Assembly (NCBI GenBank): GCA_964387845.1
Contig: CAYLXA010000002.1
Location: 1-64,000 of the forward strand
Reading direction: 5' to 3'
Length of the DNA stretch: 64,000 nucleotides
DNA from: an uncultured bacterium
GTDB lineage: Bacteria > Omnitrophota > Omnitrophia > Omnitrophales > Abzuiibacteriaceae
The position numbers were made by a program, and so were the translations under genes. Under the pieces are notes generated by a model that did not search any database, had not been told where the DNA came from, and saw nothing but the letters and a program-made list of their open reading frames with translations. This document shows positions 14,761-48,031 of the stretch, one piece after another; the first letter of the stretch is position 1, and each line of letters starts with the position of its first letter.

Positions 14761-14775
14761 CAAAAAGAAAAACAT

Positions 14776-29754: not shown

Positions 29755-30121
29755 TAATTCTAAGCACGAAAATCACGGCAGTTGTCAGACAAACCGACAC
29801 GATAGGATTGACCCCGGCCGCATATACGAAAACGTTAAAAAGGACATTGTCAAAAATTTTAAAGAAAGCAGCTTGCTGGATGTAGCGCGAAAAAGTTTTG
29901 CGGCTAAGCGGGATTCTGAAAGAAATTTTTGAATTAAAAATCCATGCGCCGGGCAGCATGACGATCGTCACAATTGCATAGTTTGCCCAGTTCGCCAAAG
30001 GCGTCCATTGATGAATCAGCGCTACGAGCAGTGTTTTGAGCAAGAAAAAAAGAACGGAGCCGCTCGTGATTAACAGCAGTGTTTTTCCACGTGCCTGATC
30101 GGGGGTGTTATGGGGCATCAT
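29720..30121 (-). CDS. GtrA-family small membrane protein
   Basis: 133 aa with four TM helices. Sits in a polyprenyl-P-sugar context. Confidence 0.55.
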   Translation of the reverse strand: MMPHNTPDQARGKTLLLITSGSVLFFLLKTLLVALIHQWTPLANWANYAIVTIVMLPGAWIFNSKISFRIPLSRKTFSRYIQQAAFFKIFDNVLFNVFVYAAGVNPIVSVCLTTAVIFVLRIIAYFKFVFLPD

Positions 30122-32575: not shown

Positions 32576-32690
32576 TTTTGGCCGTTACTTTCTAAAGGTT
32601 TTTAGTTTCAAATATCACAAATAGTGTATCGACATTTACAGCTAAAAGATTACCTGATTCTATGATAGTATTTTATACAATCGTCCATTT
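32576..32690. promoter_or_regulatory. AT-rich divergent intergenic region between oppositely oriented glycan gene blocks
   Basis: 115-bp AT-rich spacer with TATACAAT and TATGATAGT -10-like hexamers. Strand switch. Confidence 0.3.
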
Positions 32691-33395
32691 ATGAAAATCA
32701 CCCTCCTGATTATGACCTGGAACGAAATCGATGGAATGCGTGTGATCATGCCTCAGATCAAGAAAGAGTGGTATGACCAGCTCATCGTGGTTGATGGCGG
32801 GTCGACGGACGGAACAATTGAATACGCAAAAGAATGTGGTTACGAAGTATATGTACAGAAACAAAAAGGGTTTCGGCACGCGTATACGGAAGTGATGCCT
32901 TATGTTAAAGGTGATGTCATTGTTACTTTTAGCCCGGACGGTAATTCAATTGCCGAGCTGATTCCGGAGCTTAATAAAAAAATGCGCGAAGGCTACGATA
33001 TGGTCATCGTTTCGCGGTATTTGGGGAAAGCAAAAAGCAAGGATGATGATTTGGTGACGGGATTTGGCAATCGGTTATTTACAGGAACCGTAAATTTGCT
33101 TCATGGCGGGCATTATACGGATGCCATGGTGATCTTTCGCGCTTACCGGAAACAGATCGTTTACGATTTAGATTTAGACAAAGAAGAAAGCTATTCGTTT
33201 CCGGAAAAATTATTCAACACCAAAATCAGCTGGGAGCCGCTTTTGTCTGTTCGCGCTGCGAAGCGTAAATTAAAGGTCTCAGAAATTCCGGGCGACGAGC
33301 CGCCGCGAATCGGCGGCGAGAGAAAACTACAAGTACTTAAGTGGGGCGCGGCCTACTATTACCAATTCATCAGCGAAGTGTTTTGTTGGCGTTAA
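32691..33395 (+). CDS. GT2 glycosyltransferase
   Basis: ITLLIMTWNE. VVDGGSTDGT. Confidence 0.7.
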   Translation: MKITLLIMTWNEIDGMRVIMPQIKKEWYDQLIVVDGGSTDGTIEYAKECGYEVYVQKQKGFRHAYTEVMPYVKGDVIVTFSPDGNSIAELIPELNKKMREGYDMVIVSRYLGKAKSKDDDLVTGFGNRLFTGTVNLLHGGHYTDAMVIFRAYRKQIVYDLDLDKEESYSFPEKLFNTKISWEPLLSVRAAKRKLKVSEIPGDEPPRIGGERKLQVLKWGAAYYYQFISEVFCWR

Positions 33396-33419
33396 ATTAA
33401 CATTGAAGAAAGGAAAAGA

Positions 33420-34355
33420 ATGGCAAAAATCTTGGTAACCGGAGGAGCAGGGTATATCGGATCTGTTTTAGTGCCTACGCTTCTCAAAGAAAAGCATGAA
33501 GTAACCGTGCTTGATAATCTCATGTACCAGCAATCCTCGCTGTTGGATGTTTGTTACGATTCTAATCTCACGGTAGTGCGCGGAGATGCCCGCGATGAAA
33601 AACTGATCGCAGGTCTGGTCAAAACCGTCGATTATATTTTCCCGCTCGCATGTTTGACGGGAGCGCCCCTTTGCGACAAAGATCCTTTCGCGGCCAAAGA
33701 AGTGAACTTAGATGCTATTTTGTTAATTTTAAAACACCGCAGTAAGAATCAGCGCGTAATCTATCCGACGACCAACAGCGGCTACGGAATCGGCCAAAAA
33801 GGAATCCATTGCGATGAAAAAACGCCGCTCAATCCGATTTCGCTCTATGGCAAATTAAAAGTTGAGGCTGAAAAGGCGATTTTGGATTCCGGAAATGCGG
33901 TTACCTTTCGTCTCGCAACGGCGTTCGGCATCAGTCCGCGGATGCGGCTTGATTTGTTGGTGAACGATTTTGTCTACCGAGCGATTAATGACCGTGCTGT
34001 GATTCTTTTTGAAAGTCATTTCAAGCGTAACTATGTCCACGTTCGCGATATTTCGCGAGCATTTGTGCATGCGGTGAATCATTTCGATAAAATGAAAAAC
34101 GAACCGTACAATGTCGGTTTAAGCGACTGCAATTTAAGCAAAAAAGAATTGTGCGATGAAATCAAAAAGCAGGTTCCCAAATTTTATTATGTTGAGTCGG
34201 CAATTGGCGAAGACCCGGATAAACGCGATTACATCGTGAGCAACGAAAAAATCGAGAAAACAGGGTTCAAAACCGAGCATCCGTTGACGGTTGGGATACG
34301 AGAGCTGATCAAGGGGTATCAAGTTATCAAACGGAGTCAATACGGAAACGTTTAA
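33420..34355 (+). CDS. NAD-dependent nucleotide-sugar epimerase/dehydratase (SDR)
   Basis: ILVTGGAGYIGS Rossmann motif. YGKLK catalytic Yxxx K. Confidence 0.8.
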   Translation: MAKILVTGGAGYIGSVLVPTLLKEKHEVTVLDNLMYQQSSLLDVCYDSNLTVVRGDARDEKLIAGLVKTVDYIFPLACLTGAPLCDKDPFAAKEVNLDAILLILKHRSKNQRVIYPTTNSGYGIGQKGIHCDEKTPLNPISLYGKLKVEAEKAILDSGNAVTFRLATAFGISPRMRLDLLVNDFVYRAINDRAVILFESHFKRNYVHVRDISRAFVHAVNHFDKMKNEPYNVGLSDCNLSKKELCDEIKKQVPKFYYVESAIGEDPDKRDYIVSNEKIEKTGFKTEHPLTVGIRELIKGYQVIKRSQYGNV

Positions 34356-35348
34356 ATGGCGAAATCAACTTCACCAAAAAATAAAGAAATTCTAATCTCG
34401 CTTTATAAAGCGATGCTGAAAATCCGCCGTGCGGAGGAAAAAGTGGCGGAACTTTATCCGTCCGACAAAATCCAAAGCCCGATTCATCTATGCATCGGAC
34501 AGGAGGCTATTTCAGCGGGCGTTTGCCTTGCCATGAAACAGTCAGATCATCTTTATGGAACTTATCGCGGCCACGGTGTTTATTTGGCAAAGGGCGGCAG
34601 CATGAAACAAATGTTTGCCGAGTTGTATGCGAAAGACACGGGTTGTGCGGGCGGTCGCGGCGGCTCCATGCATTTGATTGCGCCCGAAGTTGGCTTGATG
34701 GGATGTTCAGCGATTGTGGCCAGTACGATTCCGCTGGCGGTGGGCGATGCGCTTGCCACAAAGATGCGGAAGAAAAATGATGTAACCGTGACTTTTTTTG
34801 GCGACGGTGCTATCGGCGAAGGCGTTTTCTTTGAAAGTTTGAATTTCGCGGCGTTGAAAAAGCTGCCCGTGGTCTTTGTCTGTGAAAATAACAATTACGC
34901 GGTTCATTCGCGCGTCTCAGACCGCCATAAACAAACCGATCTTTATAAGTACGCGCAGCCTTTCGGAGTTCCGTCTAAACGTTTAGATGGCAATGATGCC
35001 TTGTTAGTTTATGAATCAATGTCGGATGCGATTGCAAAAGCACGGAAGGGCAGCGGTCCTATCTTTATTGAATATATGACCTACCGCATTTATGAACATG
35101 TGGGCCCGTCCAAGGATCATAAAGAGGTGTACCGCGAGACAAAAAAGTTAAAAAATGCCGAAAAAAACGATCCTGTCATTCGATTGGGAAAAGAGCTGCG
35201 TCAAAAATACAAGATTCCTGAATCTGTATTTGCTGAATGGGAATCTGAATTACAGAAAGAGGTCGAGAGCGCGGTCCAGTTCGCAGAAAAAAGTCCGGAG
35301 CCCCCAGCTAGCCGTTTGTACGAGCACATCTATTTGGAGAGATCATGA
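34356..35348 (+). CDS. TPP-dependent dehydrogenase E1 alpha subunit (pyruvate/acetoin dehydrogenase E1 family)
   Basis: HLCIGQEA. YRGHG. GGRGGSMH. TPP motif GDGAIGEG..N. Confidence 0.8.
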   Translation: MAKSTSPKNKEILISLYKAMLKIRRAEEKVAELYPSDKIQSPIHLCIGQEAISAGVCLAMKQSDHLYGTYRGHGVYLAKGGSMKQMFAELYAKDTGCAGGRGGSMHLIAPEVGLMGCSAIVASTIPLAVGDALATKMRKKNDVTVTFFGDGAIGEGVFFESLNFAALKKLPVVFVCENNNYAVHSRVSDRHKQTDLYKYAQPFGVPSKRLDGNDALLVYESMSDAIAKARKGSGPIFIEYMTYRIYEHVGPSKDHKEVYRETKKLKNAEKNDPVIRLGKELRQKYKIPESVFAEWESELQKEVESAVQFAEKSPEPPASRLYEHIYLERS

Positions 35349-36376
35349 GCATTATCAGCTACGGCGAAGCCAATAAACAGGCGCTGACACTGGCGATGGA
35401 ACGCGACCCGAGCGTTTTCTTGATGGGAATCGGTGTAGATGACCACAAGGCCATTTTCGGTAGCGTGCGCGGCATGGTCGAACAGTTCGGCAAAGAGCGT
35501 ATTTTTGATACGCCGATTGCGGAGAGCGGGATGACGGGAATCGCGATTGGCGCCGCGCTAAACGGTATGCGGCCTGTCCATATTCATATCCGCGCCGACT
35601 TTTTATATTTGGCGATGGACCAGCTTTTTAATATTGCAGCGAAGTGGCATGCGATGTTTGGCGGAAAAATGAGCGTTCCGATTGTGATTCGCGCCGTGAT
35701 CGGCCGCAGCTGGGGGCAGGGTGCGCAGCATTCCCAAAGCCCTCAGGCCATGATTGCCCACGTTCCGGGTATTAAATTAGTAATGCCGACCACAGCGTAT
35801 GACGTGAAGGGCTTGCTGCTCAAAGCAATTACCGATCCAAATCCGGTGGTGATGATTGAACATCGCCTGCTTTACGACATTAAAGGAGAGGTGCCGGATG
35901 GTTATTATGAAATTCCATTCGGAAAGGGTGTTGTAAGACGAACCGGAAAGGATGTTACGATTGTCGCAACTTCCTATATGGTTGTTGAGGCATTGAAAGC
36001 TGCCGAATTTTTAACGAATCAGGGAATTGAGGTCGAGATCATTGACCCGCTTACACTGGTTCCGCTGGATGAAGAATTGATTCTGCGATCAGTTCAAAAA
36101 ACCGGCAGAATGCTGGTTGCGGATACCGGCTGGACCAATTGTGGCGTGAGCGCTGAAATTTCCGCGCGTGTTGCAGATCTCGGTTTTTCGTCACTCAAAG
36201 GCCCGATTCGCCGGCTCGGCATGGCGCCCACTGCTTGTCCGGTCAGCAAAGCCCTTGAAAACGCCTTTTATCCAAACGCTAAAACGATTGTCCAGCAAGT
36301 TTGCGAAATGTTGGGCGAGGCGGTTCCAAATGTAGAAGTCCCGCTTTTGGAAAGCAAATTCAAAGGGCCGTTTTAA
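35345..36376 (+). CDS. TPP-dependent dehydrogenase E1 beta subunit (transketolase-like)
   Basis: FGKERIFDTPIAESGMTGIAIGAALNGMRPV typical of E1 beta. ATGA coupling to E1 alpha. Confidence 0.8.
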   Translation: MSIISYGEANKQALTLAMERDPSVFLMGIGVDDHKAIFGSVRGMVEQFGKERIFDTPIAESGMTGIAIGAALNGMRPVHIHIRADFLYLAMDQLFNIAAKWHAMFGGKMSVPIVIRAVIGRSWGQGAQHSQSPQAMIAHVPGIKLVMPTTAYDVKGLLLKAITDPNPVVMIEHRLLYDIKGEVPDGYYEIPFGKGVVRRTGKDVTIVATSYMVVEALKAAEFLTNQGIEVEIIDPLTLVPLDEELILRSVQKTGRMLVADTGWTNCGVSAEISARVADLGFSSLKGPIRRLGMAPTACPVSKALENAFYPNAKTIVQQVCEMLGEAVPNVEVPLLESKFKGPF

Positions 36377-37560
36377 TGATTAAATATCATTTAGCTAAAG
36401 ACACAATTGATGAAAAAGATATTCAGGCACTGATTGAGTGGCTTAAATCCTACCCACGGCTCACGAAAGCAAATCTCACGCTTCAATTTGAAGAGCGGTG
36501 GAGCAAATGGCTTGGAAAGAAATATTCAACCTTCTGCAATTCCGGCTCATCCGCAAATTTGTTGATGTATTACGCGCTGCTAAGTTCCAAAAAGCTTAAA
36601 AATAAAAAAGTCGTCGTACCGACTGTTGGATGGGTGACCACCATTGCGCCTGCCATTCAATTCGGCTTTGAGCCGATCATGTGTGAAGCTGATCCCGACA
36701 CTTTTGGCCTTGATTTGGGTCATCTGGAAAAACTTCTCAAGAAGCACAATCCCGGCACGGTAGTGTTGGTACAGGTGCTCGGCGTTCCTCATAAAATGGA
36801 CGAAATTTTGGCGCTTAAGAAAAAATACGACTTCTATTTGTTGGAAGATGCCTGCGCTTCAATCGGTTCCACATATCACGGTAAAAAAATTGGGCAGTTC
36901 GGTGATATGGCAAGCTTTTCGTTCTATTTTGGACATCAAATGTCAACCATCGAAGGCGGTATGGTATCGACGGACAATAAAGAGTTTCAGGATTTATTAT
37001 TGATGCTTCGAAGCCATGGCTGGAGCAAGGATTTAGACGCAAAGACTCATGATGCGCTCGTTGAGCAATATAAAATTGATGACTTTCATACGCCCTTTGT
37101 TTTTTATGAGCCGGGGTTCAATTTGCGCTCAACCGACCTCAACGCATTTCTGGGGCTTCGGCAATTGGACAAGCTCGATTGGATGATTTCGCGGCGTGAT
37201 GAAAATCATAAGCTCTATTATAAACTCTTGGCAAATCAGTTTTACGCTCAGAAATATGCGGATCCAAAAGCAAATGTTTCAAGTATCTCATTTGGTGCTT
37301 TGGCCGCTGATCCGGAAGAGCGGCGCAAGGTCGTGAAGGCTTTGGTGCAGAACGGGATTGAAACCCGGATTTTTTCGGCAGGAAATCTAGGTTTGCATCC
37401 GTTTTGGTATAACCGATACGGAAAAGCGAGCTTTCCGGTTGCCGATAAAGTACACCATTGCGGATTTTTCCTTCCAAATCATCCGTCGCTTGCGACGAAA
37501 GATGTTGAATTTGTGGCGCAGGTAACCTTGGATGCGGTATGCACGGGAAAATCCTCGTAA
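36376..37560 (+). CDS. DegT/DnrJ-family PLP enzyme of the 3-dehydratase type (ColD/E1-like, His replaces the PLP lysine)
   Basis: FSFYFGHQMSTIEGG has His where aminotransferases have Lys, as in ColD/AscC. TAATG overlap start at 36376. The ORF-track 5' extension was rejected. Confidence 0.65.
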   Translation: MIKYHLAKDTIDEKDIQALIEWLKSYPRLTKANLTLQFEERWSKWLGKKYSTFCNSGSSANLLMYYALLSSKKLKNKKVVVPTVGWVTTIAPAIQFGFEPIMCEADPDTFGLDLGHLEKLLKKHNPGTVVLVQVLGVPHKMDEILALKKKYDFYLLEDACASIGSTYHGKKIGQFGDMASFSFYFGHQMSTIEGGMVSTDNKEFQDLLLMLRSHGWSKDLDAKTHDALVEQYKIDDFHTPFVFYEPGFNLRSTDLNAFLGLRQLDKLDWMISRRDENHKLYYKLLANQFYAQKYADPKANVSSISFGALAADPEERRKVVKALVQNGIETRIFSAGNLGLHPFWYNRYGKASFPVADKVHHCGFFLPNHPSLATKDVEFVAQVTLDAVCTGKSS

Positions 37561-38468
37561 CCGGCGGCACAGGTCTTTTGGGATCAGCGCTTCAAAAGCA
37601 GTGTCCGGATGCGGTTTATGTTGGAAGTAAAGATTATGACTTGAGACGGTTTGATGAGGCTGAGAGGATGTTTGGCGAAATAAAACCAACCCGCGTGATT
37701 CATCTTGCGGCCAATGTGGGTGGGGTGAAGAAAAACGCGGAGCAAAATGCCACACTTTTCTCGGACAATGTTTTAATCAACACCAATGTGATTGAGGCTG
37801 CAATTCAAGGCGGTGTTAAGCGGTTGATTTCAATTTTATCCAGCTGTTGTTTTAAAATTTATCCGGACAAGCCGTCAACAGAGAGCGATTTGCATGAAGG
37901 TGCGCCGTTTGCCGGCAATTTGGGCTATGGTTATGCAAAGCGAATGCTGGACATCCATAGCCGCTTAGCGTGGGAGCAGCATCGGCTGCAGTTTTCATCG
38001 ATCACTCCAGCGACAATGTATGGGCTTAACGATAACTGGGATCTAGAAAGCGGACATGTGGTGGCTGCGTTAATCCGCCGGACGTTTATAGCGAAAGAAA
38101 GGGGCGAGCCGTTGACTGTTTGGGGAAGTGGAAATGCTGTCCGCCAATTTGTCTTAGCAGATGATGTCGCGAGGCTGCTTTTAGAGGAGATTGATACGTT
38201 TGATGGCCCCGACAATATGATCGTAGCACCGGATTCGGGTGTCTCGATACGCGATTTAACAAGCATGATCGCGGAGCTGATGAATTTTAAAGGAGAAATT
38301 ATTTTTGACCAGTCGAAACCGGAGGGACAATTAAAGAGAGTGTTGATCAGTGAGAAATTTAAAAAGCGGTATCCCGAATTTAGCTTTACACCGCTTCGCA
38401 GCGGCTTAAAAATGACCATTGATTGGTTTCTCAAAAACTATAAAACAGCAAGGGTTTTGAAGGTGTGA
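37539..38468 (+). CDS. NAD(P)-dependent nucleotide-sugar epimerase/reductase, GDP-L-fucose synthase (Fcl/ColC)-like
   Basis: ILVTGGTGLLGSAL. SSCCFKIYP. YGYAK. Follows the ColD-like gene. Confidence 0.7.
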   Translation: MHGKILVTGGTGLLGSALQKQCPDAVYVGSKDYDLRRFDEAERMFGEIKPTRVIHLAANVGGVKKNAEQNATLFSDNVLINTNVIEAAIQGGVKRLISILSSCCFKIYPDKPSTESDLHEGAPFAGNLGYGYAKRMLDIHSRLAWEQHRLQFSSITPATMYGLNDNWDLESGHVVAALIRRTFIAKERGEPLTVWGSGNAVRQFVLADDVARLLLEEIDTFDGPDNMIVAPDSGVSIRDLTSMIAELMNFKGEIIFDQSKPEGQLKRVLISEKFKKRYPEFSFTPLRSGLKMTIDWFLKNYKTARVLKV

Positions 38469-38469
38469 C

Positions 38470-39516
38470 ATGATTATTAGCCGAACCCCTTTTCGTGTTT
38501 CTTTTTTAGGCGGCGGAACCGATTACCCCGGTTGGTACCGTGAGCATGGCGGAGCCGTGTTGGCGACAACCATTGATAAGTACTGCTATATTACTTGCCG
38601 CTATCTACCCCCATTTTTTGAGCATAAAAGCCGCATCATGTATTCCAAAATCGAGTGCGTTCAGTCCAATAAAGACATCGAACATCCCTCTGTGCGGGAA
38701 ACTTTGAAATATATGAATATCCAAGAGGGGATTGAGATTCATCACGACGGCGATTTGCCTGCCCGCGCCGGTTTGGGATCAAGCTCTGCTTTTACAGTGG
38801 GATTATTGAACGCGCTTTATGGCCTTAAGCGTAAAATGTCGTCTAAAGAAGATTTGGCAAAGGAAGCGATTCATGTGGAAAGAGATCTCCTGAGCGAGAA
38901 TGTGGGATCTCAAGATCAGGTACAGTCGTCGTTTGGCGGTTTGAATCACATTGAATTCCTCAAAAACGGACAATTTAACGTTTTTCCGATTGTTTTGAAG
39001 CATGAGCGCCTTCAAAGTTTTCAAGATCATCTTTTGCTGTATTTTACGGGTTTCTCGCGTTTTGCTTCAGACATTGCAAAAGAGCAAATTGATTCGATTG
39101 CGAAAAAACAAAATGAGCTTAAAGCGATGGGGCAAATGGTTGGTGAAGGCCTCAAGATTCTTACGGGTGACGCAAGCTTGTTGGAATTTGGAAAATTGCT
39201 GCATGAAAGCTGGACATTGAAGCGGAATTTGACTAACCGGATTTCAACACCTGCCATTGATCAAATTTATGAAGAAGCGCGGAGGGCAGGCGCCGTGGGC
39301 GGAAAGCTGCTCGGGGCCGGCGGGGGCGGTTTCGTTCTTTTGCTGGTTGAGCCCGGTAAACAGCAAAAAGTAAAGGATGTGCTGCAAAAATTATTGCTGG
39401 TCCCGTTTCAATTCGAAAACACGGGAACGCAGGTTGTTTTTTACCGCCCTCCCAAGGAAAGTACCGAAATGAGTTGGTTTAAGTTCCAAAAGGAGCGGGA
39501 AGCTTCGCAAAAGTGA
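38470..39516 (+). CDS. GHMP sugar kinase (HddA-like D-glycero-D-manno-heptose 7-phosphate kinase family)
   Basis: PFRVSFLGGGTDYP N-terminus. GHMP motif PARAGLGSSSA. C-terminal GAGGGGF. Confidence 0.7.
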   Translation: MIISRTPFRVSFLGGGTDYPGWYREHGGAVLATTIDKYCYITCRYLPPFFEHKSRIMYSKIECVQSNKDIEHPSVRETLKYMNIQEGIEIHHDGDLPARAGLGSSSAFTVGLLNALYGLKRKMSSKEDLAKEAIHVERDLLSENVGSQDQVQSSFGGLNHIEFLKNGQFNVFPIVLKHERLQSFQDHLLLYFTGFSRFASDIAKEQIDSIAKKQNELKAMGQMVGEGLKILTGDASLLEFGKLLHESWTLKRNLTNRISTPAIDQIYEEARRAGAVGGKLLGAGGGGFVLLLVEPGKQQKVKDVLQKLLLVPFQFENTGTQVVFYRPPKESTEMSWFKFQKEREASQK

Positions 39517-40238
39517 ACAAACGCCTGACCGATCCAGCACACATTGACGTGTTAATTATTTGCGGAGGGCTGGGGACGCGCCTCCGTTCTGTCGAGCCCG
39601 ATGCGCCCAAAGGCATGGTTGTTATTGAAGGAAAACCGTTTCTTGAAATTCTGATTGATCATTTGCGTCATTCCGGTTTTCGGCGTTTTATTCTCTGCAC
39701 CGGTTACGGCGCCAAACGTTTTCGGCAGCATTTTGAAGCGGCCAAACAGTCAGAAATTATATTTTCCGAAGAAGTAAAGCCGCTGGGCACGGCCGGAGCT
39801 GTCAAGCAAGCCGAAAAACTCATAAGCAGCGATCAGCAGTTGGTGTTAAATGGCGATTCTTTGTGCTTGGCGGATTGGCAGGAGCTATTACGCTTTCATG
39901 CATCGCATCAGGGGTTGGCAACGCTTTTGGTAACTCAGGACCGAGAGCGAACGGATGTGGGCGGAATCAAGTTTGATCACAACTTCGGCGTAACGCAATT
40001 TAAAGAAAAGGAAAAAGAATCGACCCCATATATTAATGCGGGTATTTATATTTTTGAGCGCCGGTTATTGGAATTGATTCCGAAAAATCAAAAAATTTCT
40101 TTGGAGGAACAAATTTTTCCAAAGCTGAACGAAACCCAACTGTTTGCTTGCGTATCATTAGCAACTGTGTATGATATTGGAACGCCCGAACGTTTAGAGA
40201 AATTTAAACAACTTTATTCTGCAGGAAAATTCAATTAA
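39513..40238 (+). CDS. Sugar-1-phosphate nucleotidyltransferase (HddC/mannose-1-P guanylyltransferase-like)
   Basis: ICGGLGTRLR nucleotidyltransferase motif. About 240 aa. Coupled to the kinase. Confidence 0.7.
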   Translation: MNKRLTDPAHIDVLIICGGLGTRLRSVEPDAPKGMVVIEGKPFLEILIDHLRHSGFRRFILCTGYGAKRFRQHFEAAKQSEIIFSEEVKPLGTAGAVKQAEKLISSDQQLVLNGDSLCLADWQELLRFHASHQGLATLLVTQDRERTDVGGIKFDHNFGVTQFKEKEKESTPYINAGIYIFERRLLELIPKNQKISLEEQIFPKLNETQLFACVSLATVYDIGTPERLEKFKQLYSAGKFN

Positions 40239-40243
40239 ACGAT

Positions 40244-41794
40244 ATGGTTAATACAAAAAATAAACTTGATGTCTTGCTCATTAATCCTGGCAATTTGATC
40301 CAGGTTTACCAAACGCTGGGACTCAATATTTCTGCTATCGAGCCGCCGGTTTGGTCCGGGTTGATGGCCACTTTCGTTCGGCGCAAAGGCTGTTCCGTTC
40401 AAATTCTGGATGCTAACGCCGAGAATCTGACCCCTGCTCAAACTGCGCAAAAAGCGCTTGAGTTGAAGCCGCTTCTGATCGCTGTTGTTGTTTACGGACA
40501 TCAACCGTCGGCTTCGACGCAAATTATGCCGGCGGCAAGTTCAATTTGCTCCGCGATTAAGGCGCAAGACCCAAGCCAAAAGGTGTTTTTGGTTGGCGGG
40601 CATGTCTCGGCGCTGCCTGATCGGACGCTGAGCGAGGAAAGTGCAGATTTTGTGTCGAGCGGCGAGGGGCCGCACACGCTTTTAGAGTTAATTGAGGCGC
40701 TGAAAGCCGGCGGCTCCGAAAATTTAAAGAAGGTTCGCGGATTACTTTATAAAGAAAACGGGAAAATTCAGTTCAACGCACCGGCACCACTCGTCAAAAA
40801 CTTGGATGAAGAAATGCCTGAAATGGCCTGGGATCTTTTGCCTATGGAAAAATACCGGGCGCACAACTGGCATTGTTTCGGTCATTTAGATAAACGCGCG
40901 CCTTATGCTTCGTTTTATACCACGCTCGGGTGTCCGTATCACTGCACTTTTTGTTGTATTCAGTCGCCTTACAAAACCGGAGAAAAAGAGTCTGGTTTGA
41001 AGGAGGAGATTAACAGCTATCGCTTCTGGAATCCCAAAACGGTTGTCGATCAAATCGGAAAATTAGTCAACGAATACGGAGTCCGCAATATTAAGATCGC
41101 AGACGAGATGTTTGTTCTCAATGCGCGTCATGTATTTGGTATTTGCGATTTGATCATTGAGCGCGGTTATGATTTGAATATTTGGGCGTATGCACGCATT
41201 GACACAATTAAGGACAATATGCTGGACAAATTAAAGCGTGCGGGTGTGAACTGGCTCGCGTTTGGCATCGAGTCGGGTAGCGAGCGTGTCCGAGATAATG
41301 TGGACAAAGCGTTTGACCAAGAGGACATTCGCAAAGTAATTCAAAAAGTGAAAGATGCTGGTATTAACATCATCGGAAATTATATCTTCGGGCTACCGGA
41401 AGATGATATGAATTCAATGAAAGCCACTCTGGATTTAGCGCTCGAACTTAATTGCGAATTTACCAACTTTTATTGCGCGATGGCGTATCCCGGGTCTCCT
41501 TTGTATCAGCAGGCTATCCGTGAAAAATGGGCATTACCAAAAGCCTGGAGCGGTTATTCTCAGCATTCGGTCGATATGCTTCCGCTTGCCACAAAACACC
41601 TCCCGGCTTCTGACGTTATTCGGTTTAGAGACCAGGCATTTGAGGTTTATTTTAAATCACCTAAATATTTAGAGATGGTGCGCCAAAAATTCGGCGAAGA
41701 AACTTTAAAACATATCCAGGCAATGCTTTCACATCAGCTTAAACGACAATTCGTTTCTTCAAGCACGTCAAAAACCTCATCGCAAAAGAGTTGA
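40244..41794 (+). CDS. Cobalamin-binding radical SAM enzyme (class B, probable sugar C-methyltransferase)
   Basis: N-terminal B12-binding-like domain. Radical SAM cysteine cluster GCPYHCTFCC. Confidence 0.7.
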   Translation: MVNTKNKLDVLLINPGNLIQVYQTLGLNISAIEPPVWSGLMATFVRRKGCSVQILDANAENLTPAQTAQKALELKPLLIAVVVYGHQPSASTQIMPAASSICSAIKAQDPSQKVFLVGGHVSALPDRTLSEESADFVSSGEGPHTLLELIEALKAGGSENLKKVRGLLYKENGKIQFNAPAPLVKNLDEEMPEMAWDLLPMEKYRAHNWHCFGHLDKRAPYASFYTTLGCPYHCTFCCIQSPYKTGEKESGLKEEINSYRFWNPKTVVDQIGKLVNEYGVRNIKIADEMFVLNARHVFGICDLIIERGYDLNIWAYARIDTIKDNMLDKLKRAGVNWLAFGIESGSERVRDNVDKAFDQEDIRKVIQKVKDAGINIIGNYIFGLPEDDMNSMKATLDLALELNCEFTNFYCAMAYPGSPLYQQAIREKWALPKAWSGYSQHSVDMLPLATKHLPASDVIRFRDQAFEVYFKSPKYLEMVRQKFGEETLKHIQAMLSHQLKRQFVSSSTSKTSSQKS

Positions 41795-42978
41795 CTCAGT
41801 CGCGATCAACGCAGAAGCAATGGATAGTTATCGGCGGCGGCATTATTGGCACCGCGGTTGCCCTGGCTCTTGCTAAGCGCAAAGCTGGCTCAATCTTAAT
41901 TCTAGAGAAAGAATCTTCGCTCGGGCTTCATCAAAGCGGTCGCAACAGCGGTGTCATTCATTCCGGGATTAATCAAAAACCCGGAAGTTTGAAAGCAAAA
42001 ATGTGCGTTGAGGGCAGCCGGCGCTTGCGAGAATATTGCAGACAGCGGCGGATTGTGATGAATGAATGTGGGACTTTAGTGATTGCGCGTCATGCCGAAG
42101 AGCTGGCAACCCTAGACCGTCTTTTAAAAATGGGTGTCGAGTGCGGCGTTGAGGGGTTGATGTTAATCGGCCGCGATGAATTGATTGAGCGGGAACCGAT
42201 TGCCAAAGGCGATAGTGCTCTTCTGTCTCCCTCAGGCGCAACCGTTGATTCTGAAATGCTCCTCAAATCTCTTGCGCAAGATGCGCGCGAGGTCGGTGTT
42301 GAGTATAAAATGGTCCATCGCGTTTTAAAAATCGAAGGAAATACGGTCTATACCAACCAAGGGAGTTTCAACGCCGAATACATCATTAATTGTGCGGGGC
42401 TTTATGCAGATGAAATTGCGCATATGATGAACGCAGGGAGAGGTTATCGGATTATTCCATTTCGCGGCGAGTATATGGAAGTCAAAAATTGCGATGTGAA
42501 ATCAATGGTTTATCAGGCTCCTGATCTCCGGTTTCCGTTTTTGAGCATTCATTTAACCCGGGAAACGGACGGAAGAGTGCTTGCCGGGCCTAGCGCAGTT
42601 TTGGCGTTTGGCAGGGAAGCATATGAGAAGGAATGGGATTGGCGTGAAATGGGCCGCATGTTTACTAGTATGCAATTTTTACGGATGGTTATCAGACCAG
42701 AGTTTGTGCAGCTAGCTTCCGAGAATTTGAAAACATCGCTATCAGCAAATAGTTTTTTGGAGCAGATTCAGTCTCTGGTTGCAGGTGTAACGCAAGAACA
42801 GATTGTGCCGCATCGGGCCGGAATCCGAGCTCAGATGGTGGATCAAAGCGGTAAATTGGTTGATGATATTTTGGTGGAACATCAACCGTCGGCAACGCAT
42901 GTGCTGAATGCAGTATCTCCCGGAATGACGTGCAGTCTGGCATTTGCAGACTATTTAGCGGGGCAAATTTTAAATTAG
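41791..42978 (+). CDS. FAD-dependent oxidoreductase (DAO/LhgO family)
   Basis: IVIGGGIIGTAVALAL dinucleotide motif. Coupled to the radical SAM gene. Confidence 0.7.
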   Translation: MTQSRSTQKQWIVIGGGIIGTAVALALAKRKAGSILILEKESSLGLHQSGRNSGVIHSGINQKPGSLKAKMCVEGSRRLREYCRQRRIVMNECGTLVIARHAEELATLDRLLKMGVECGVEGLMLIGRDELIEREPIAKGDSALLSPSGATVDSEMLLKSLAQDAREVGVEYKMVHRVLKIEGNTVYTNQGSFNAEYIINCAGLYADEIAHMMNAGRGYRIIPFRGEYMEVKNCDVKSMVYQAPDLRFPFLSIHLTRETDGRVLAGPSAVLAFGREAYEKEWDWREMGRMFTSMQFLRMVIRPEFVQLASENLKTSLSANSFLEQIQSLVAGVTQEQIVPHRAGIRAQMVDQSGKLVDDILVEHQPSATHVLNAVSPGMTCSLAFADYLAGQILN

Positions 42979-42993
42979 TGAGATAGTTAACGA

Positions 42994-43968
42994 GTGGCTT
43001 GTATGAAAAAAATTTTAATCTGCGGCGGAACTGGTTTTATCGGCAGGAATTTGGTTGAGTATTTTGTCAAAAAACCAGATTTTGAAGTTTACGCAACTTG
43101 TTACAAGCGTCGTTCTCCCTTAATTCCAAAGGCTAAATTTAAGCGTATTGATTTAACAAATGTTGTGCAAGTTCAAGAAATTGTGAAGGGGATGGATGTT
43201 GTGGTTCAAGCCGCTGCCACAACCTCCGGCGTAAAGGATACGATTGAGGCGCCTTATGTGCACGTTACAGATAACGCCGTAATGAACTCCTTGATTTTTC
43301 GAGCGTGTTTCGAGCAAAAGGTGAAACACGTGATCTTTTTAAGCTGTACCGTGATGTATCCGAATCAGGAGGCGCCAGTTTCGGAAGAAGATATGAATTA
43401 TCAAATTACGGATAATTATTTTGGTGTCGGTTGGACAAAAGTTTACCTCGAGAAAATGAGCCAATTTTATTCGCGAATCGGAAGTGCTAAATATACCGCG
43501 ATTCGGCATTCCAATATTTACGGCCCTTATGATAAGTATGATCTTGAAAAATCACACGTTTTTGGCGCAACGGTTGCGAAAGTTGAAACTGCCAAGGACG
43601 GCAAAGTTGTGGTCTGGGGCACGGGCGCCCAAGAGCGCGATCTTTTATATGTGGATGACCTGTCCCGGTTTATTGATTTGGCAATTGAAAAGCAAACTGA
43701 AAAGTTTGAGCTGGTTAATGTTGGTTACGGAAAAAGCATTTCAATTGCTAATCTGGTCCAGTTGATTATTGACCGCTCCAAAAAGAATTTAAAGATTGAG
43801 TATGATCATTTAAAGCCTTCGGTTAACTTCAAGTTGGTTCTGAATATCGACCGCGCAAAGCGCATTTTTGGCTGGGAGCCGCAGGTGCCGCTTGAAGAAG
43901 GAATTGAAAGGAGTCTTGCGTGGTATCGAAAACATATTCAACCAATGTCTGCCGAAAAGATTAAATGA
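42994..43968 (+). CDS. NAD-dependent nucleotide-sugar epimerase/dehydratase (SDR)
   Basis: ILICGGTGFIGRNL. YxxxK in YLEKMSQ. Confidence 0.75.
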   Translation: MACMKKILICGGTGFIGRNLVEYFVKKPDFEVYATCYKRRSPLIPKAKFKRIDLTNVVQVQEIVKGMDVVVQAAATTSGVKDTIEAPYVHVTDNAVMNSLIFRACFEQKVKHVIFLSCTVMYPNQEAPVSEEDMNYQITDNYFGVGWTKVYLEKMSQFYSRIGSAKYTAIRHSNIYGPYDKYDLEKSHVFGATVAKVETAKDGKVVVWGTGAQERDLLYVDDLSRFIDLAIEKQTEKFELVNVGYGKSISIANLVQLIIDRSKKNLKIEYDHLKPSVNFKLVLNIDRAKRIFGWEPQVPLEEGIERSLAWYRKHIQPMSAEKIK

Positions 43969-46019
43969 AAAGCAAATTAATTTGCGCTGCCGTATTAGTG
44001 GCGCTGATTGTGATTTCATTTTACACCTACCGCTCCGGTGTCATTTCCGTGCCTCGCTCCGATCACTATGGGTTTATGGCGGAGAGGGAATACGCAGTTT
44101 CGGATACCGAGTTTTTGTTGAAGCAGTTGGTCTATAACCGGACCCGCGTCATCGCAAAGGGTGATTCTTTTTTGTTCAGGCCCGGAATGACCGGCACGCT
44201 CGCGCTTTTGGATATTTTTTTTCGGCATAATTTGTATGCGCTTGGCGCTTTCAGTATCCTCGCGCATGCTTTGACGGCTTTTTCATTGTTCTTATTGCTG
44301 AGTTTGTTTTTAAGGCGCTCTTTTGCGTTTATCCTATCCGTTGTATTTGCCACGCATCTGGCAGGTTTTGAAATGGTTTTTTGGCGCCATATCAGTCCTT
44401 ACATGTTTTGCCTGGTTTTTGTAGGATTGGCATTGTACGCGCTTGGCCGCTGGCTTCAGCCGCCCGAAAATCGAAATTGGCTTTTATTATTTTCATTCTG
44501 CCTTTTTTTATCTTCACTATTTCACGAAGTTGTTTTGCCGGCGATGGTTATCTTCTGTCTTTTATTTTTAGTTCTGCATTTTCAAAATCAATCAACGAAT
44601 CCATCTTATTTTAAATCATTGTCAATCGCGTGCCTGGTCCCGCTGGCTGCTAATTTGCTGCTCAACGTCGCTGGCCGGATCGCTTTTAGCAGCCAGGCCA
44701 ACCTGTTATTGAGTGATGCGGCGCAACCGGCAAGCGTTGCTTACGCCTCAAAATTTTTAAGCCACGCGGTTTACGTCGGGGGCCTGATTATCACTGCCTT
44801 TTTGGCGCCGAGCATCATTCGTTTCTCATTTATTAATTTGGATTTTCGGGCGGAGTGGGACTTTCTCAAAATTCCAGCGCCTGTTTTTTACACCGCCGGT
44901 TTTATTTTTCTTACATTGATCGCAGGGGCGTTAATTTATCTATATATTTTCAGAAAAAAGCTCGGTCAGCGACAGCTTTTTCCGATTTTTGCATTCGCGG
45001 GAATATTTTTGATTGTCACTTTTTTGGGACTAACGGTCGGGAGGGCCATTCCGCGCTCAATCGGTTATTTGAAAAACTCCACCTATTATTTCTATCTAAC
45101 CAATTACGCCCTTACAATCATCGTTGCTATGGGCTTGAGAAAAATCAGCAGCTTACCGTATAAAAATTTAAAAATCGGATTAGTGTTTTTCCTGCTCTGT
45201 GTTGCCGGTTATCAGATTAAAAGCGGTATTGCGGGAATCGAAAAGGCAATCAATGCTCGAGGTGATTACGATAAACAAATCGCTTCCAAAACACTCCGGG
45301 TTTGGTCAGAATTAAGCAAGCATCCGGAATATTGCTATGGTGGGACCGGGGCCGAAAGAGTTTCAAGCTTTGTGCCCAATGTTCTGCTGTACCGAAGGTC
45401 ATGCAATGCTTTCCCGGACAAAATCCCGCTCTATTTGCTCGAAAACGAAAAACGCGAACTTTGGTTTATGCAGTTGATTCCTGAGCAGATTGATCAGCAG
45501 GCCTATCGTTATGGGCAGATCAATAATGAGGGGCAAGCCGAGTTTTCCGCTCAATCAACCGATAACCAGCTCAGTTTTAGCGGTTTTTCTCTTAGCAATG
45601 CCGTCCATCATCCTATTTATTACGGCGCCCGGCTTCATGGGGGATTTGTCGGAGGTTTGGTATTTAACTATCACGACCCCGCCAATTTTTCAATCTTAGT
45701 GGCAAATGAACGTTACACTTATGTGCAATTTAACGAGAATGGAAACCCCTCGGAACCGTCGTATGTGGCGCAGCAGATTTTAGATCCGATCGCTTTTGAT
45801 TTGTCGATTCGGAGAATCGGCGGCAGGTATGTTGTATTCTATAACCGGACTTTGCTTGCAGTGATCAATGATGCTGTTTCCGAGGGACGAGTGGGGCTTT
45901 ATCGGAAGCCCCGTCATTCAGCAGGCGAGTATTTTACCGACGTGGTCTTGATTGATGCTTCAGAGGCCAAACAATCGCAGATGGGTGCTTTTGAACCTGT
46001 TTTTCAATTTCAATTTTAG
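43965..46019 (+). CDS. Polytopic membrane protein with a ~280-aa C-terminal soluble domain (glycan-assembly protein, family unassigned)
   Basis: About 11 TM helices followed by a soluble domain. Lies in the glycan locus. Confidence 0.4.
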   Translation: MKSKLICAAVLVALIVISFYTYRSGVISVPRSDHYGFMAEREYAVSDTEFLLKQLVYNRTRVIAKGDSFLFRPGMTGTLALLDIFFRHNLYALGAFSILAHALTAFSLFLLLSLFLRRSFAFILSVVFATHLAGFEMVFWRHISPYMFCLVFVGLALYALGRWLQPPENRNWLLLFSFCLFLSSLFHEVVLPAMVIFCLLFLVLHFQNQSTNPSYFKSLSIACLVPLAANLLLNVAGRIAFSSQANLLLSDAAQPASVAYASKFLSHAVYVGGLIITAFLAPSIIRFSFINLDFRAEWDFLKIPAPVFYTAGFIFLTLIAGALIYLYIFRKKLGQRQLFPIFAFAGIFLIVTFLGLTVGRAIPRSIGYLKNSTYYFYLTNYALTIIVAMGLRKISSLPYKNLKIGLVFFLLCVAGYQIKSGIAGIEKAINARGDYDKQIASKTLRVWSELSKHPEYCYGGTGAERVSSFVPNVLLYRRSCNAFPDKIPLYLLENEKRELWFMQLIPEQIDQQAYRYGQINNEGQAEFSAQSTDNQLSFSGFSLSNAVHHPIYYGARLHGGFVGGLVFNYHDPANFSILVANERYTYVQFNENGNPSEPSYVAQQILDPIAFDLSIRRIGGRYVVFYNRTLLAVINDAVSEGRVGLYRKPRHSAGEYFTDVVLIDASEAKQSQMGAFEPVFQFQF

Positions 46020-46034
46020 TTATGCGGTAGTGAG

Positions 46035-47963
46035 GTGTGTGTGATGATTTTGTTTCCGGTTTTATTATTTGCGGCTTTGGTTCTGATTTTAAACGGCCAT
46101 CCGCAATTTCGAGTCAATGAACGCGATGATTGGCGTTATCAAACGGGTCTTGCATTTGTTGTGACGGGCGTCATCGCGGTTGCTGCGATTGAAGTGTTGA
46201 GCGTTTTTTCTGCGCTTACACAAAAAACCGTTGGCGTGACATGGGGAGCGCTGCTGTGCGTTGCTCTGTCTGTTTGGTTTTTTGGTTATCGAAAAACTCA
46301 GATCCTGCCTTCGATTTCCGGTTTTTCAGGTTTATTCTTAGGGCTTTTGTCCGGGATTTTTTTCCTCGTAATTATTACGAGCGTTGTTGCTCTTTTGGCT
46401 CCGCCCAATACATGGGATTCGCTGACGTATCACATGAGCCGGGTCGCGCATTGGGTCCAAAATAGAAGTGTCGGACACTATCCAACCAACATTTTAAGGC
46501 AATTGTATCATGCGCCAGGAGCCGAATTTATGATCTTGCAAGCCCAGCTCTTGAGCGGAGGCGACCGCTTTGCCAATATGATTCAATGGAGTTTTTATAT
46601 CGGCTGTGTTCTCACCAGTTCTTTGCTGACAAAGCAATTTGGATTTGACCGGTGGGCACAGCTGCTGACCGCGGTTTTTGCGTCAACGCTCCCGATGGCG
46701 ATTTTACAGGCTTCAAGCACGCAAAACGATCTGGCAGCCTCGTTCTGGCTTCTTGCAGCAGTTGTGTTTCTTCTGAGGCTGCAGAATCAATTTAATTGGA
46801 CAGATGCGTGCGGTGCCGGTGCCGGTATTGGGCTTGCGTTTCTGACAAAATCACTATCCTATGTTTACATTATTCCGTTCATAGCGTGGTTTGCTTGGGC
46901 TTGCGTCAGAAACAGGCAGTGGGGAAAGTTGTCAAAAACTGCGGCGTTAATTGCTGCGCTGGTTATCGTGATTAATCTGGGCCACTGGTCGCGCAATTTC
47001 GTACTTTTCCATCATCCGCTAGGGCCAATAAAAACAATAGATTTAACCAACGAGAAATTCGGCGTCCGGCCCGTGTTGTCTAACATAATTCGGGGCGCTG
47101 CCTCGCACGCGAGCTTTCCGATCATTGGTATTAACCACGAGCTGACCAAATGGATTTATGCGTTCCACCGTTCGCTTGGCATGGATGCCAATGATCCGAA
47201 GACAACCTATGATCCTAATTTTGGAAAATTTCAAATCCGTCCGCTTCACGCCCATGAAGATTCAGCGAGCAACCCCATTCATTTTTGGCTGATTGTGATT
47301 TGCGGGATTATTGCGCTGCGCAGGCGCGAGACTCGAAAAGAGCCAAAATTTATATTTTATCTTGCATCGGTCATTGCTGCCTTCCTGCTAATTTGCATTA
47401 TTTTCAAGTGGCAAGTGTGGATCAGCCGTTTGCAGCTGCCTCTTTTCTTTTTTTGGGCACCTGTGGCGGGTTCAGTGCTGTCTTTGATGAAAGCAAAAAG
47501 CGTATCTGGCGCAGTTGCCGTTTTTTTGCTGGTCAGCTCACTTTATTCAGCTTTCTTTAATTTTTCTCGGAGTTTTTTTAAGTGGCCTTTTGTTGACAAT
47601 ATGCCGCCCACTGTTTTTGAAGCAGGACGTGACATGCTGTATATGAATAACGGGGCTAACATTGTGAAGCTTTCATATTTACTTGCAACAAAACATATTG
47701 AATCGAAGCGCTATAAGAATGTCGGACTTATTGTTCATGAGGATGACTGGGAATATCCGTACTGGGCGATACTGCAAGCCAATCGGAATGCGATCCGGAT
47801 TGAACATATAGAAGTGGCGAATATATCGAGTAAAATAAAAAGAAAGCCTTTTCGGCCGGATGTTGTTATTGCATCAAAGCCAACGGATGGGCAAATCCGA
47901 CGCTATGAAGCCGAGTATGGTTCCGGCGAACAGATGGGAATTTTGTGGGTTTTTGGCCGGTAG
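46035..47963 (+). CDS. Polytopic membrane protein, GT-C-like, with a C-terminal soluble domain
   Basis: About 12 TM helices. Early loop PPNTWDSLTYH with acidic residues. C-terminal ~180-aa soluble region. Confidence 0.4.
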   Translation: MCVMILFPVLLFAALVLILNGHPQFRVNERDDWRYQTGLAFVVTGVIAVAAIEVLSVFSALTQKTVGVTWGALLCVALSVWFFGYRKTQILPSISGFSGLFLGLLSGIFFLVIITSVVALLAPPNTWDSLTYHMSRVAHWVQNRSVGHYPTNILRQLYHAPGAEFMILQAQLLSGGDRFANMIQWSFYIGCVLTSSLLTKQFGFDRWAQLLTAVFASTLPMAILQASSTQNDLAASFWLLAAVVFLLRLQNQFNWTDACGAGAGIGLAFLTKSLSYVYIIPFIAWFAWACVRNRQWGKLSKTAALIAALVIVINLGHWSRNFVLFHHPLGPIKTIDLTNEKFGVRPVLSNIIRGAASHASFPIIGINHELTKWIYAFHRSLGMDANDPKTTYDPNFGKFQIRPLHAHEDSASNPIHFWLIVICGIIALRRRETRKEPKFIFYLASVIAAFLLICIIFKWQVWISRLQLPLFFFWAPVAGSVLSLMKAKSVSGAVAVFLLVSSLYSAFFNFSRSFFKWPFVDNMPPTVFEAGRDMLYMNNGANIVKLSYLLATKHIESKRYKNVGLIVHEDDWEYPYWAILQANRNAIRIEHIEVANISSKIKRKPFRPDVVIASKPTDGQIRRYEAEYGSGEQMGILWVFGR

Positions 47964-48031
47964 GTAGCTTTTTGCCTTTACCGGAGCAGTGAAATTGCCG
48001 ATAAAAATAGCTAAATTTAAGGAGTTTTTTC

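Follow-up and report, generated by a model that had tools for sequence, protein, structure and literature searches.

The 64-kb stretch of DNA analysed here, from an uncultured bacterium of the phylum Omnitrophota (contig CAYLXA010000002.1; hereafter the window, with all coordinates given as positions within it), carries at 32691-43968 an operon that would build and export a modified higher-carbon sugar. The predicted route starts from a guanosine diphosphate (GDP)-heptose and proceeds through oxidation at C4, 3-deoxygenation, branching at C4 by a thiamine diphosphate (ThDP) enzyme, tailoring by short-chain dehydrogenases/reductases (SDRs) and a radical S-adenosylmethionine (SAM) enzyme, and hand-over to a lipid carrier. 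The probability of this reading as a whole is put at roughly 0.55, its chemistry being predicted from sequence. Each enzyme type has a known precedent; what is undescribed is the natural combination of a C4-dehydrogenase, a 3-dehydratase, ThDP branching and a B12-binding radical SAM enzyme, and the wide, conserved distribution of that combination.

Operon architecture

A preliminary reading made from the letters of the window (the sequence-only reading) had drawn a four-gene module at 36376-40238. All four open reading frames (ORFs) are present on the + strand, co-directional and overlapping or abutting, and the two motifs quoted for them, FGHQMSTIEGG and PFRVSFLGGGTDYP, translate exactly. However, the bounds chosen cut a + strand run of at least 11 tightly packed genes, extending from 32691 to at least 43968 with intergenic gaps of no more than 24 nt and with several overlapping start and stop codons. 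The gene order is GT2 glycosyltransferase, SDR-A, E1α, E1β, ColD-like protein, Fcl-like SDR, kinase, nucleotidyltransferase, B12-radical-SAM enzyme, FAD oxidoreductase and SDR-B (Table 1). The narrower module had thus omitted the C4-dehydrogenase (SDR-A), the E1α/β pair, the B12-radical-SAM enzyme, the L-2-hydroxyglutarate oxidase (the FAD oxidoreductase), the second Fcl-like SDR (SDR-B) and the leading GT2. The four-gene module thus occupies the middle of a single operon (32691-43968, with a probable extension to 47963). A promoter and terminator scan of 32300-50000 gave counts at or below shuffled expectation, so that it is gene spacing and synteny that carry the operon call. Ten genes, from GT2 through the FAD enzyme, stand in the same order in a metagenomic relative (L071; L073) whose ColD-like protein is 82 % identical.

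Table 1. Features of the operon and of its probable downstream extension
Feature	Coordinates	Strand	Basis
GT2 glycosyltransferase, first operon gene; probably a polyprenyl-phosphate sugar transferase	32691..33395	+	PF00535
SDR-A; predicted Cj1427-type NAD-dependent C4-dehydrogenase acting on GDP-heptose	33420..34355	+	homology to PDB 6VO6/6VO8
ThDP-dependent E1α, stand-alone, without E2/E3	34356..35348	+	PF00676, TIGR03182
ThDP-dependent E1β	35345..36376	+	PF02779, PF02780, NF006667
ColD-like sugar 3-dehydratase, pyridoxamine phosphate (PMP)-dependent, DegT family, His for Lys	36376..37560	+	394 aa from ATG 36376
Codon of His187 (pyridoxal phosphate (PLP)-lysine position)	36934..36936	+	ColD alignment, family invariance
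Fcl-like SDR, putative epimerase/ketoreductase	37539..38468	+	NF047922, 4e5y
HddA-like GHMP sugar-phosphate anomeric kinase	38470..39516	+	NF049969 best match
HddC-like single-domain sugar-1-phosphate transferase, probably guanylyl	39513..40238	+	NF049965, 241 aa
B12-binding radical SAM enzyme	40244..41794	+	PF02310, PF04055
FAD-dependent L-2-hydroxyglutarate oxidase/dehydrogenase (LhgO type)	41791..42978	+	NF008726 above cut-off
SDR-B, second Fcl-like SDR	42994..43968	+	NF047922 best match, 145 bits
Two large membrane-type proteins, candidate transferases for a lipid-linked sugar	43965..47963	+	same direction, role inferred

Related loci were collected by scanning one genome per GTDB species, and ORFs were called in all of them and clustered de novo. 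The resulting 68 loci come from Nitrospira (28), Patescibacteria and Saccharibacteria, Elusimicrobia, deltaproteobacterial metagenome-assembled genomes (MAGs), Hydrogenedentes and a nanoarchaeon. Those of at least 18 kb are referred to as long loci (n=36; 22 from Nitrospira and 14 from elsewhere).

A predicted ColD-type 3-dehydratase

The DegT-family protein, whose start codon shares one base with the stop codon of the E1β gene, matches PF01041 (DegT/DnrJ/EryC1) over residues 11-382 (245 bits, E 1.7e-72). Among all sequences of the Protein Data Bank (PDB) its top match is ColD (2gms; 182 bits, E 1.7e-52), to which it is 34 % identical by BLASTP. The next matches are the CDP-hexulose 3-dehydrase E1 (3bcx/3bb8, ~130 bits) and a putative NDP-hexose 3-dehydratase (9wvy, 113 bits), and true aminotransferases appear from 111 bits down. 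Within the motif FGHQMSTIEGG, translated from 36928-36960, the residues G-H-Q align with S187-H188-H189 of ColD and His187 falls in the column of ColD His188, a column fixed by the deposited ColD mutants H188N (3b8x), H188K (2r0t) and S187N/H188K (3gr9). All 120 of the nearest database homologues share this His, and 64 of 65 orthologues drawn from related loci keep the GH motif. Proteins 58-77 % identical to the window protein are spread over Patescibacteria, Elusimicrobia, Nitrospira, deltaproteobacterial MAGs and a nanoarchaeon.

The placement of a His at the PLP-lysine position, on which the sequence-only reading had built its call of a 3-dehydratase, is borne out by this alignment. Its label 'ColD/E1-type' holds for the ColD half; the E1 half is unlikely, the E1 structure scoring 132 bits against 182 for ColD. 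E1-type enzymes carry a [2Fe-2S] cysteine motif (CxC). The cysteines of the window protein are at positions 54, 103, 160, 362 and 389 only and include no CxC pair, so the protein is of ColD type rather than E1 type. Family scans found no ferredoxin-reductase-like (E3-type) gene among the operon genes, and the RfbH/E1 equivalog NF011936 is matched at 209.6 bits against a cut-off of 423. An E1/AscC-type dehydratase (Fe-S and E3-dependent) was rejected in view of the cysteine pattern together with the relative scores. The protein is thus a ColD-type 3-dehydratase, in predicted activity, with His at the PLP-lysine position.

Origin of the 4-keto group

SDR-A aligns without gaps over 308 aa with PDB 6VO6/6VO8 (BLASTP; 55 % identity, 73 % similarity, E 1e-114), its YGKLK opposite the YGIDK (YxxxK) of Cj1427 and its PTTNSGYG opposite PNTNSGYG. 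The identity of 6VO6 as Cj1427 was checked through the primer Cj1427cF918 (PMC3546167), the reverse complement of which encodes RAFKMMKV; this string occurs in the 6VO6 chain at about residue 300, the position expected for nucleotide 918. Cj1427 of Campylobacter jejuni is a ping-pong GDP-heptose C4-dehydrogenase whose tightly bound NADH is re-oxidised by α-ketoglutarate, giving L-2-hydroxyglutarate (PMC10680097). Incubated with the C. jejuni HS:5 C3-dehydratase, PLP, glutamate and α-ketoglutarate, it yields GDP-D-glycero-3-deoxy-4-keto-heptose in vitro, given there as compound 33 with an [M-H]- ion at m/z 616.08, and the GDP-3-deoxy-heptoses derived from this compound were called novel by the same authors (PMC10680097). 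A full-text search of a literature library for 3-deoxy-heptoses returned no other paper.

Family scans of the operon revealed no 4,6-dehydratase of the GMD/DmhA type: the three SDRs are one Cj1427-like and two Fcl-like proteins, and they score no more than 100 bits on dehydratase models with cut-offs of at least 365. With a Cj1427-like gene in the operon and no 4,6-dehydratase, the 4-keto group would most simply arise by C4 oxidation, and C6 would then keep its hydroxyl. The likely intermediate is GDP-D-glycero-3-deoxy-4-keto-heptose. The 4,6-dehydration listed as a missing step in the sequence-only reading would not be required, as the 4-keto group would be supplied by the Cj1427-type enzyme, the gene for which accompanies the ColD-like gene in 34 of the 36 long loci.

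The FAD enzyme scores 359.7 bits on NF008726 (LhgO), above the curated cut-off of 299, over profile positions 3-387 of 389; its top structure is 8w75 (211 bits). In a metagenome scan, its closest relatives, counting those whose contigs are long enough for a judgement (63-75 % identity), come from two more lineages, where they are part of the same operon (L073, L074); another (62 % identity) is on a 5.4-kb contig without visible module genes, and those below ~40 % identity are located elsewhere. One Elusimicrobia locus (L029) has a copy of 37 % identity next to the module. The ColD-type step releases α-ketoglutarate from glutamate (PMC10680097). Because the dehydrogenase would emit stoichiometric L-2-hydroxyglutarate and the ColD-type step α-ketoglutarate, an oxidase in the operon would close an α-ketoglutarate cycle and clear a dead-end metabolite, a proposal to which the gene linkage lends some weight.

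A distant LhgO-like gene (28 % identical) was also seen at 10001-11086 of a different sugar cluster (L096), together with E1α/β genes (45-50 % identity), an SIS protein, a nucleotidyltransferase, B12-radical-SAM genes and several SDRs. LhgO-like enzymes and sugar branching genes may here have come together a second time and independently.

The sugar backbone

The kinase, with the motif PFRVSFLGGGTDYP translated from 38488-38529, matches the HddA model NF049969 at 144.7 bits (E 4.5e-42, profile positions 3-318 of 338, cut-off 600), as against 88 bits for fucokinase (E 2.5e-25) and 66 bits for galactokinase (E 3.6e-18). Its top structures are annotated heptose kinases, namely 3k85 (140 bits), WcbL (4usk, 120 bits) and 4n3o. 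The nucleotidyltransferase matches HddC (NF049965) at 129.3 bits over profile positions 3-219 of 221 (cut-off 300), with Yersinia HddC as its top structure (6jq8/5xhw, 120 bits). For the Fcl-like SDR the top family is GDP-L-fucose synthase (NF047922, 189 bits, cut-off 500) and the top structure human GDP-fucose synthase (4e5y, 241 bits), in alignment with which the catalytic Ser/Cys, YxxxK and His are kept. The best families and structures thus agree with the earlier assignment of an Fcl-like, an HddA-like and an HddC-like protein to a GDP-linked pathway, and the kinase sides with HddA rather than with galactokinase or fucokinase. The kinase orthogroup is found with an SIS isomerase and a transaldolase in three deltaproteobacterial loci (L001, L008, L033). 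A heptose backbone is favoured because kinase, transferase and dehydrogenase match heptose enzymes best and because of this linkage of the kinase orthogroup.

The same chemistry could act on another starting sugar, either GDP-mannose, with the kinase a plain anomeric hexose kinase, or a GDP-octose formed as in the lincosamide route (LmbR/LmbN/LmbP/LmbK/LmbO). No gmhA, gmhB, transaldolase or HAD-phosphatase gene was found in the window by tblastn with the SIS and transaldolase proteins of L001 and by a Pfam scan of the remaining ORFs, which for gmhA and gmhB agrees with the sequence-only reading. The transferase scores 146.6 bits on the mannose-1-phosphate guanylyltransferase (ManC) model, in the N-terminal domain only. 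Additionally, transaldolase, isomerase, kinase and guanylyltransferase also make up the lincosamide GDP-octose route (PMC4351081), so that the transaldolase, SIS isomerase and GHMP kinase of the three deltaproteobacterial loci mirror LmbR/N/P/O too. However, the heptose enzymes remain the best matches of the kinase, the transferase and the C4-dehydrogenase alike, the transferase has the short single-domain architecture of HddC, and the window has no transaldolase gene. A different backbone is accordingly unlikely, though far from negligible.

Proposed C4 branching by a ThDP enzyme

The E1α protein scores 250 bits on PF00676 and 330 bits on TIGR03182 (cut-off 394), and E1β 317 bits on NF006667 (cut-off 321). 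The E1β gene shares 4 nt with that of E1α and 1 nt with the ColD-like gene, and family scans found no E2 or E3 partner in the operon. E1α is located beside the ColD-like gene in many phyla. In avilamycin and paulomycin biosynthesis the E1α/β-like pairs AviB1/AviB2 and Pau11/Pau12 are proposed to install a C4 acetyl branch, and C4 acetyl branching has been shown experimentally for YerE, a single ThDP flavoprotein; the two ThDP types are alternative routes of C4 acetyl branching on 3-deoxy-4-keto nucleotide sugars (PMC4753412, PMC9306805). There the branch is added after 3-deoxygenation, and the side chain is subsequently altered by SDRs or transaminases (PMC4753412, PMC9306805).

A ThDP enzyme is present in 32 of the 36 long loci. 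Among the 22 long Nitrospira loci, 11 carry the E1α/β type, 11 a three-domain acetolactate-synthase (YerE-like) type, and none both. Two mutually exclusive ThDP types, their standing as alternatives in the literature, the lack of E2/E3 and the position of the E1α/β genes between dehydrogenase and dehydratase together suggest that, by analogy, E1α/β would add a two-carbon unit to C4 of the ColD-like product.

Alternatively, the E1α/β pair and the radical SAM enzyme could be unrelated neighbours and the product a plain GDP-3-deoxy-heptose, with C4 reduced by the Fcl-like SDR. Cj1427, a C3-dehydratase and a C4-reductase suffice for GDP-3-deoxy-heptoses in vitro (PMC10680097), and of the 14 long loci from outside Nitrospira, 4 lack a ThDP enzyme within 10 kb. 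Set against this are the presence of a ThDP enzyme in nearly all long loci, the interchange of two unrelated ThDP types in Nitrospira, the E1α/β genes lying between dehydrogenase and dehydratase with overlapping stop and start codons, and the missing E2/E3 partner, which make an unbranched product very unlikely.

The least probable alternative is the colitose-like product that the sequence-only reading had proposed, a GDP-linked 3,6-dideoxy (or 6-deoxy) heptose or hexose, formed from a 4-keto-6-deoxy substrate that a 4,6-dehydratase from another part of the genome would supply in the manner of C. jejuni HS:5 or Escherichia coli O55: 4-keto-6-deoxy sugars are the natural substrates of ColD and of the HS:5 C3-dehydratase, the Fcl-like SDR resembles true GDP-fucose synthases, which use such substrates, and LegB-like 4,6-dehydratase homologues lie near some related loci, but no operon SDR is a 4,6-dehydratase, the Cj1427-type C4-dehydrogenase upstream and in almost every long locus makes one unneeded, and the L-2-hydroxyglutarate oxidase fits the dehydrogenase route.

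Putative tailoring enzymes and lipid-carrier route

The B12-radical-SAM gene is present in 32 of the 36 long loci. The nearest families of the window protein are HpnJ (169 bits) and BchE (142 bits), all far below cut-off, and its nearest structure is the diol-dehydratase AprD4 (60 bits).

SDR-B has YFGx[AG]WxK in place of YxxxK, a motif conserved in its orthologues. In SDR-B and its orthologues of L001, L010, L049, L051 and L060 the form is YFGx[AG]W[TM]K, such that the canonical Tyr of YxxxK is replaced by Ala or Gly, a Trp follows, and a Tyr stands three residues before it; these proteins do retain the Cys and His typical of Fcl epimerases. SDR-B may be an epimerase-only or mechanistically altered SDR. 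It was considered as the missing 4,6-dehydratase and rejected, its best match being Fcl.

The best NCBIfam matches of the leading GT2 are weak and all below cut-off (AglJ, dolichyl-phosphate hexose transferase, ArnC and PpgS). Orthologues of it (49-75 % identity) are neighbours of the module in 11 loci outside Nitrospira and in L071/L073. At the other end of the operon, a gene for a 684-aa protein without a family match overlaps SDR-B by 4 nt and is followed, after a 15-nt gap, by a gene for a 642-aa protein with a PMT_2 GT-C domain. The GT2 orthologues accompanying the module, together with GT-C-type membrane proteins nearby, suggest from homology a lipid-carrier route for the sugar.

Proposed pathway

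The pathway would begin with a GDP-heptose for which the GmhA isomerase and GmhB phosphatase would have their genes in another part of the genome. The Cj1427-type dehydrogenase would oxidise C4, its bound NADH being re-oxidised by α-ketoglutarate to give L-2-hydroxyglutarate, which the LhgO-type flavoenzyme would convert back to α-ketoglutarate. The ColD-like enzyme would then strip the 3-hydroxyl, with His187 as acid/base and PMP regenerated from L-glutamate, to leave GDP-D-glycero-3-deoxy-4-keto-heptose with its C6 hydroxyl retained. At the C4 carbonyl, E1α/β would attach a two-carbon acyl unit from pyruvate, on the model of AviB1/AviB2 and YerE. One or both Fcl-like SDRs may epimerise and/or reduce the sugar ring or side chain, and the B12-radical-SAM enzyme would add a methylation, a dehydration or a C-C bond. 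Finally, the leading GT2 would load the sugar onto polyprenyl phosphate, from which GT-C-type membrane enzymes would transfer it onward. Strong homology argues for the starting sugar, the C4 oxidation and the 3-deoxygenation, and a family match above curated cut-off plus gene linkage for the recycling of L-2-hydroxyglutarate; the branching, tailoring and lipid steps are suggested by gene co-occurrence and published precedent.

In addition to the points already given in favour of another backbone or an unbranched product, several observations weigh against this pathway. None of the four genes of 36376-40238 reaches its NCBIfam equivalog cut-off, and neither do the E1 subunits; with such scores each of the four proteins is family-like and not a certified orthologue. 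The LhgO-like gene is linked to the module in few lineages only. Branching of C4 by the ThDP enzyme would make an Fcl-type reduction there superfluous, which casts doubt on the part played by the two Fcl-like SDRs. For the radical SAM enzyme, methylation, dehydration and C-C bond formation are all possible.

A more far-reaching version of the proposal, quite unlikely in its entirety, is that the module makes a sugar class new to nature: a GDP-3-deoxy-heptose with its 6-hydroxyl kept and a ThDP-derived C4 acyl branch (9-10 carbons), reworked by an HpnJ/BchE/AprD4-like B12-radical-SAM enzyme, for example by a C-C bond from branch to side chain to give a carbocycle-fused sugar, or by radical dehydration. 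The module would in that case be a horizontally spread surface or flagellin module of Nitrospira, Patescibacteria, Elusimicrobia and DPANN archaea in which a dedicated oxidase closes the α-ketoglutarate cycle. The product was also compared with bradyrhizose, a bicyclic sugar of ten carbons (C10), on the grounds that heptose, C2 branch and methyl add up to the same number; the idea was dropped as unsupported, the published gene paper having no comparable gene content.

Distribution of the module

Relatives of the ColD-like protein at ~70 % identity number in the thousands, with Patescibacteria, Elusimicrobiota, Chloroflexi and deltaproteobacterial MAGs among the named sources. The kinase is present in 30 of the 36 long loci. 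The 22 long Nitrospira loci share the order ColD-like, Fcl-like, C4-dehydrogenase, kinase and transferase, followed by one of two sets: E1α/E1β with a radical SAM enzyme (11 loci), or an aminotransferase, a radical SAM enzyme and the three-domain acetolactate-synthase-type ThDP enzyme (11 loci). The leading GT2 is absent from the Nitrospira cassettes.

In at least 20 Nitrospira genomes (L022-L070, e.g. L039 1-21155) genes labelled flgL-like, fliW-like, histidine-kinase, HD-GYP and PilZ immediately precede the cassette; these labels derive from reading representative sequences rather than from family searches. The flgL and fliW neighbours hint at flagellin glycosylation, and suggest that the Nitrospira cassette serves it. 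In seven Patescibacteria/Saccharibacteria loci (L012, L018, L020, L050, L054, L057 and L060) the HddC-like transferase is often absent; these loci instead have a small cytidylyltransferase-like protein (PF01467), a NUDIX protein, an RmlC-type epimerase and an inositol-monophosphatase-family protein. This version of the cassette, from the candidate phyla radiation, may use another activating nucleotide and a substitute for GmhB.

ColD-like and Cj1427-like proteins are 58-77 % identical across bacterial phyla and in a DPANN archaeon (L003-L070; the archaeon is L051, a Nanoarchaeota MAG). Such identity is far above that expected from the divergence of the organisms and points to horizontal spread of the cassette. 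With core enzymes this similar in Nitrospira, candidate-phyla-radiation bacteria, Elusimicrobia and a nanoarchaeon, the product is probably an uncharacterised surface glycan component of wide occurrence.

The operon suggests that the combination of Cj1427 with a C3-dehydratase, assembled in vitro, is used in nature and extended by carbon branching and radical chemistry. The L-2-hydroxyglutarate oxidase is a candidate physiological partner for the unusual α-ketoglutarate-dependent mechanism of Cj1427, and the Nitrospira loci are a natural example of unrelated ThDP enzymes, of two types, standing in for one another at a single step of a pathway. Nitrospira are nitrifiers of practical importance, and the substrates named here lend themselves to a short enzymatic reconstitution.

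Neighbouring genes

Upstream of the operon and divergent from it, a - strand block (26413-32575) encodes a GT2, a polysaccharide pyruvyl transferase, an FrhB/FdhB-like protein, a 2-oxoglutarate-Fe(II) oxygenase and a 536-aa protein. The last has no family match and is the sole member of the block with a counterpart at the matching position of L071; the greater part of the block may thus have been inserted, bringing in additional glycan-modifying genes.

At 16481-19800, next to a divergent 235-aa GT2, lies a gene for an 874-aa homologue of STT3/PglB-type oligosaccharyltransferases (PF02516, 84 bits, plus an STT3-PglB core domain), among pseudopilin, PilO-like and T2SS-K-like genes (12184-16115, 20120-21139). 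These genes could specify N-linked protein glycosylation within the glycan-rich region that also holds the operon. The gene at 49777-53001 encodes a 1074-aa protein in which a spermine/spermidine-synthase-like domain (residues 553-712) is joined by TPR repeats at the C terminus; this gene is flanked by two GT2 genes, and an asparagine synthase homologue is located downstream. An ATP synthase gene at 5332-6069 apparently encodes a fused b-like (PF00430) and delta/OSCP (PF00213) subunit.

Comparison with known systems

The ColD-like protein resembles ColD of E. coli O55:H7 (GDP-4-keto-6-deoxy-D-mannose 3-dehydratase, 2GMS) in its DegT fold, its length (394 vs ~390 aa), the His in place of the Schiff-base lysine and the lack of an Fe-S cysteine motif, and the genes around it likewise indicate a GDP-linked substrate. 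However, it has 34 % identity to ColD, as against 62-67 % for the C. jejuni C3-dehydratases, has Gly186 where ColD has Ser187, and belongs to a separate clade that retains 58-77 % identity across very distant phyla. Its partner is a C4-dehydrogenase and not, as for ColD and the HS:5 C3-dehydratase of C. jejuni, a 4,6-dehydratase.

With the heptose cassette of C. jejuni HS:2 (HddC, GmhA2, HddA, Cj1427, Cj1428, Cj1430) the operon shares a Cj1427 homologue, HddA-like and HddC-like proteins and an Fcl-family SDR, and C4 oxidation is predicted to follow the same α-ketoglutarate-dependent logic. The operon lacks GmhA and a cupin-type C3/C5 epimerase, and adds the ColD-like 3-dehydratase, the ThDP E1α/β pair, the B12-radical-SAM enzyme and the L-2-hydroxyglutarate oxidase. 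C. jejuni itself keeps the routes through Cj1427 and through the C3-dehydratase apart, and only in vitro have they been united (PMC10680097).

The lipid-carrier systems ArnC/ArnT and Dpm/PMT are comparable in that a small GT2 and PMT_2-family GT-C proteins occur in one gene run, although the matches are weak, and the Nitrospira cassette differs in lacking this GT2 and lying beside flgL and fliW. A parallel for the order of steps exists with yersiniose (YerE/YerF), avilamycin and paulomycin, where a His-type dehydratase forms a 3-deoxy-4-keto nucleotide sugar on which a ThDP enzyme and then SDR ketoreductases act; the likeness to AviB1/AviB2 is one of enzyme type. Acceptors known from those systems are 3,6-dideoxy hexoses or pentoses linked to CDP or TDP, whereas here a GDP-heptose with its 6-hydroxyl is predicted, and a B12-radical-SAM enzyme is added.

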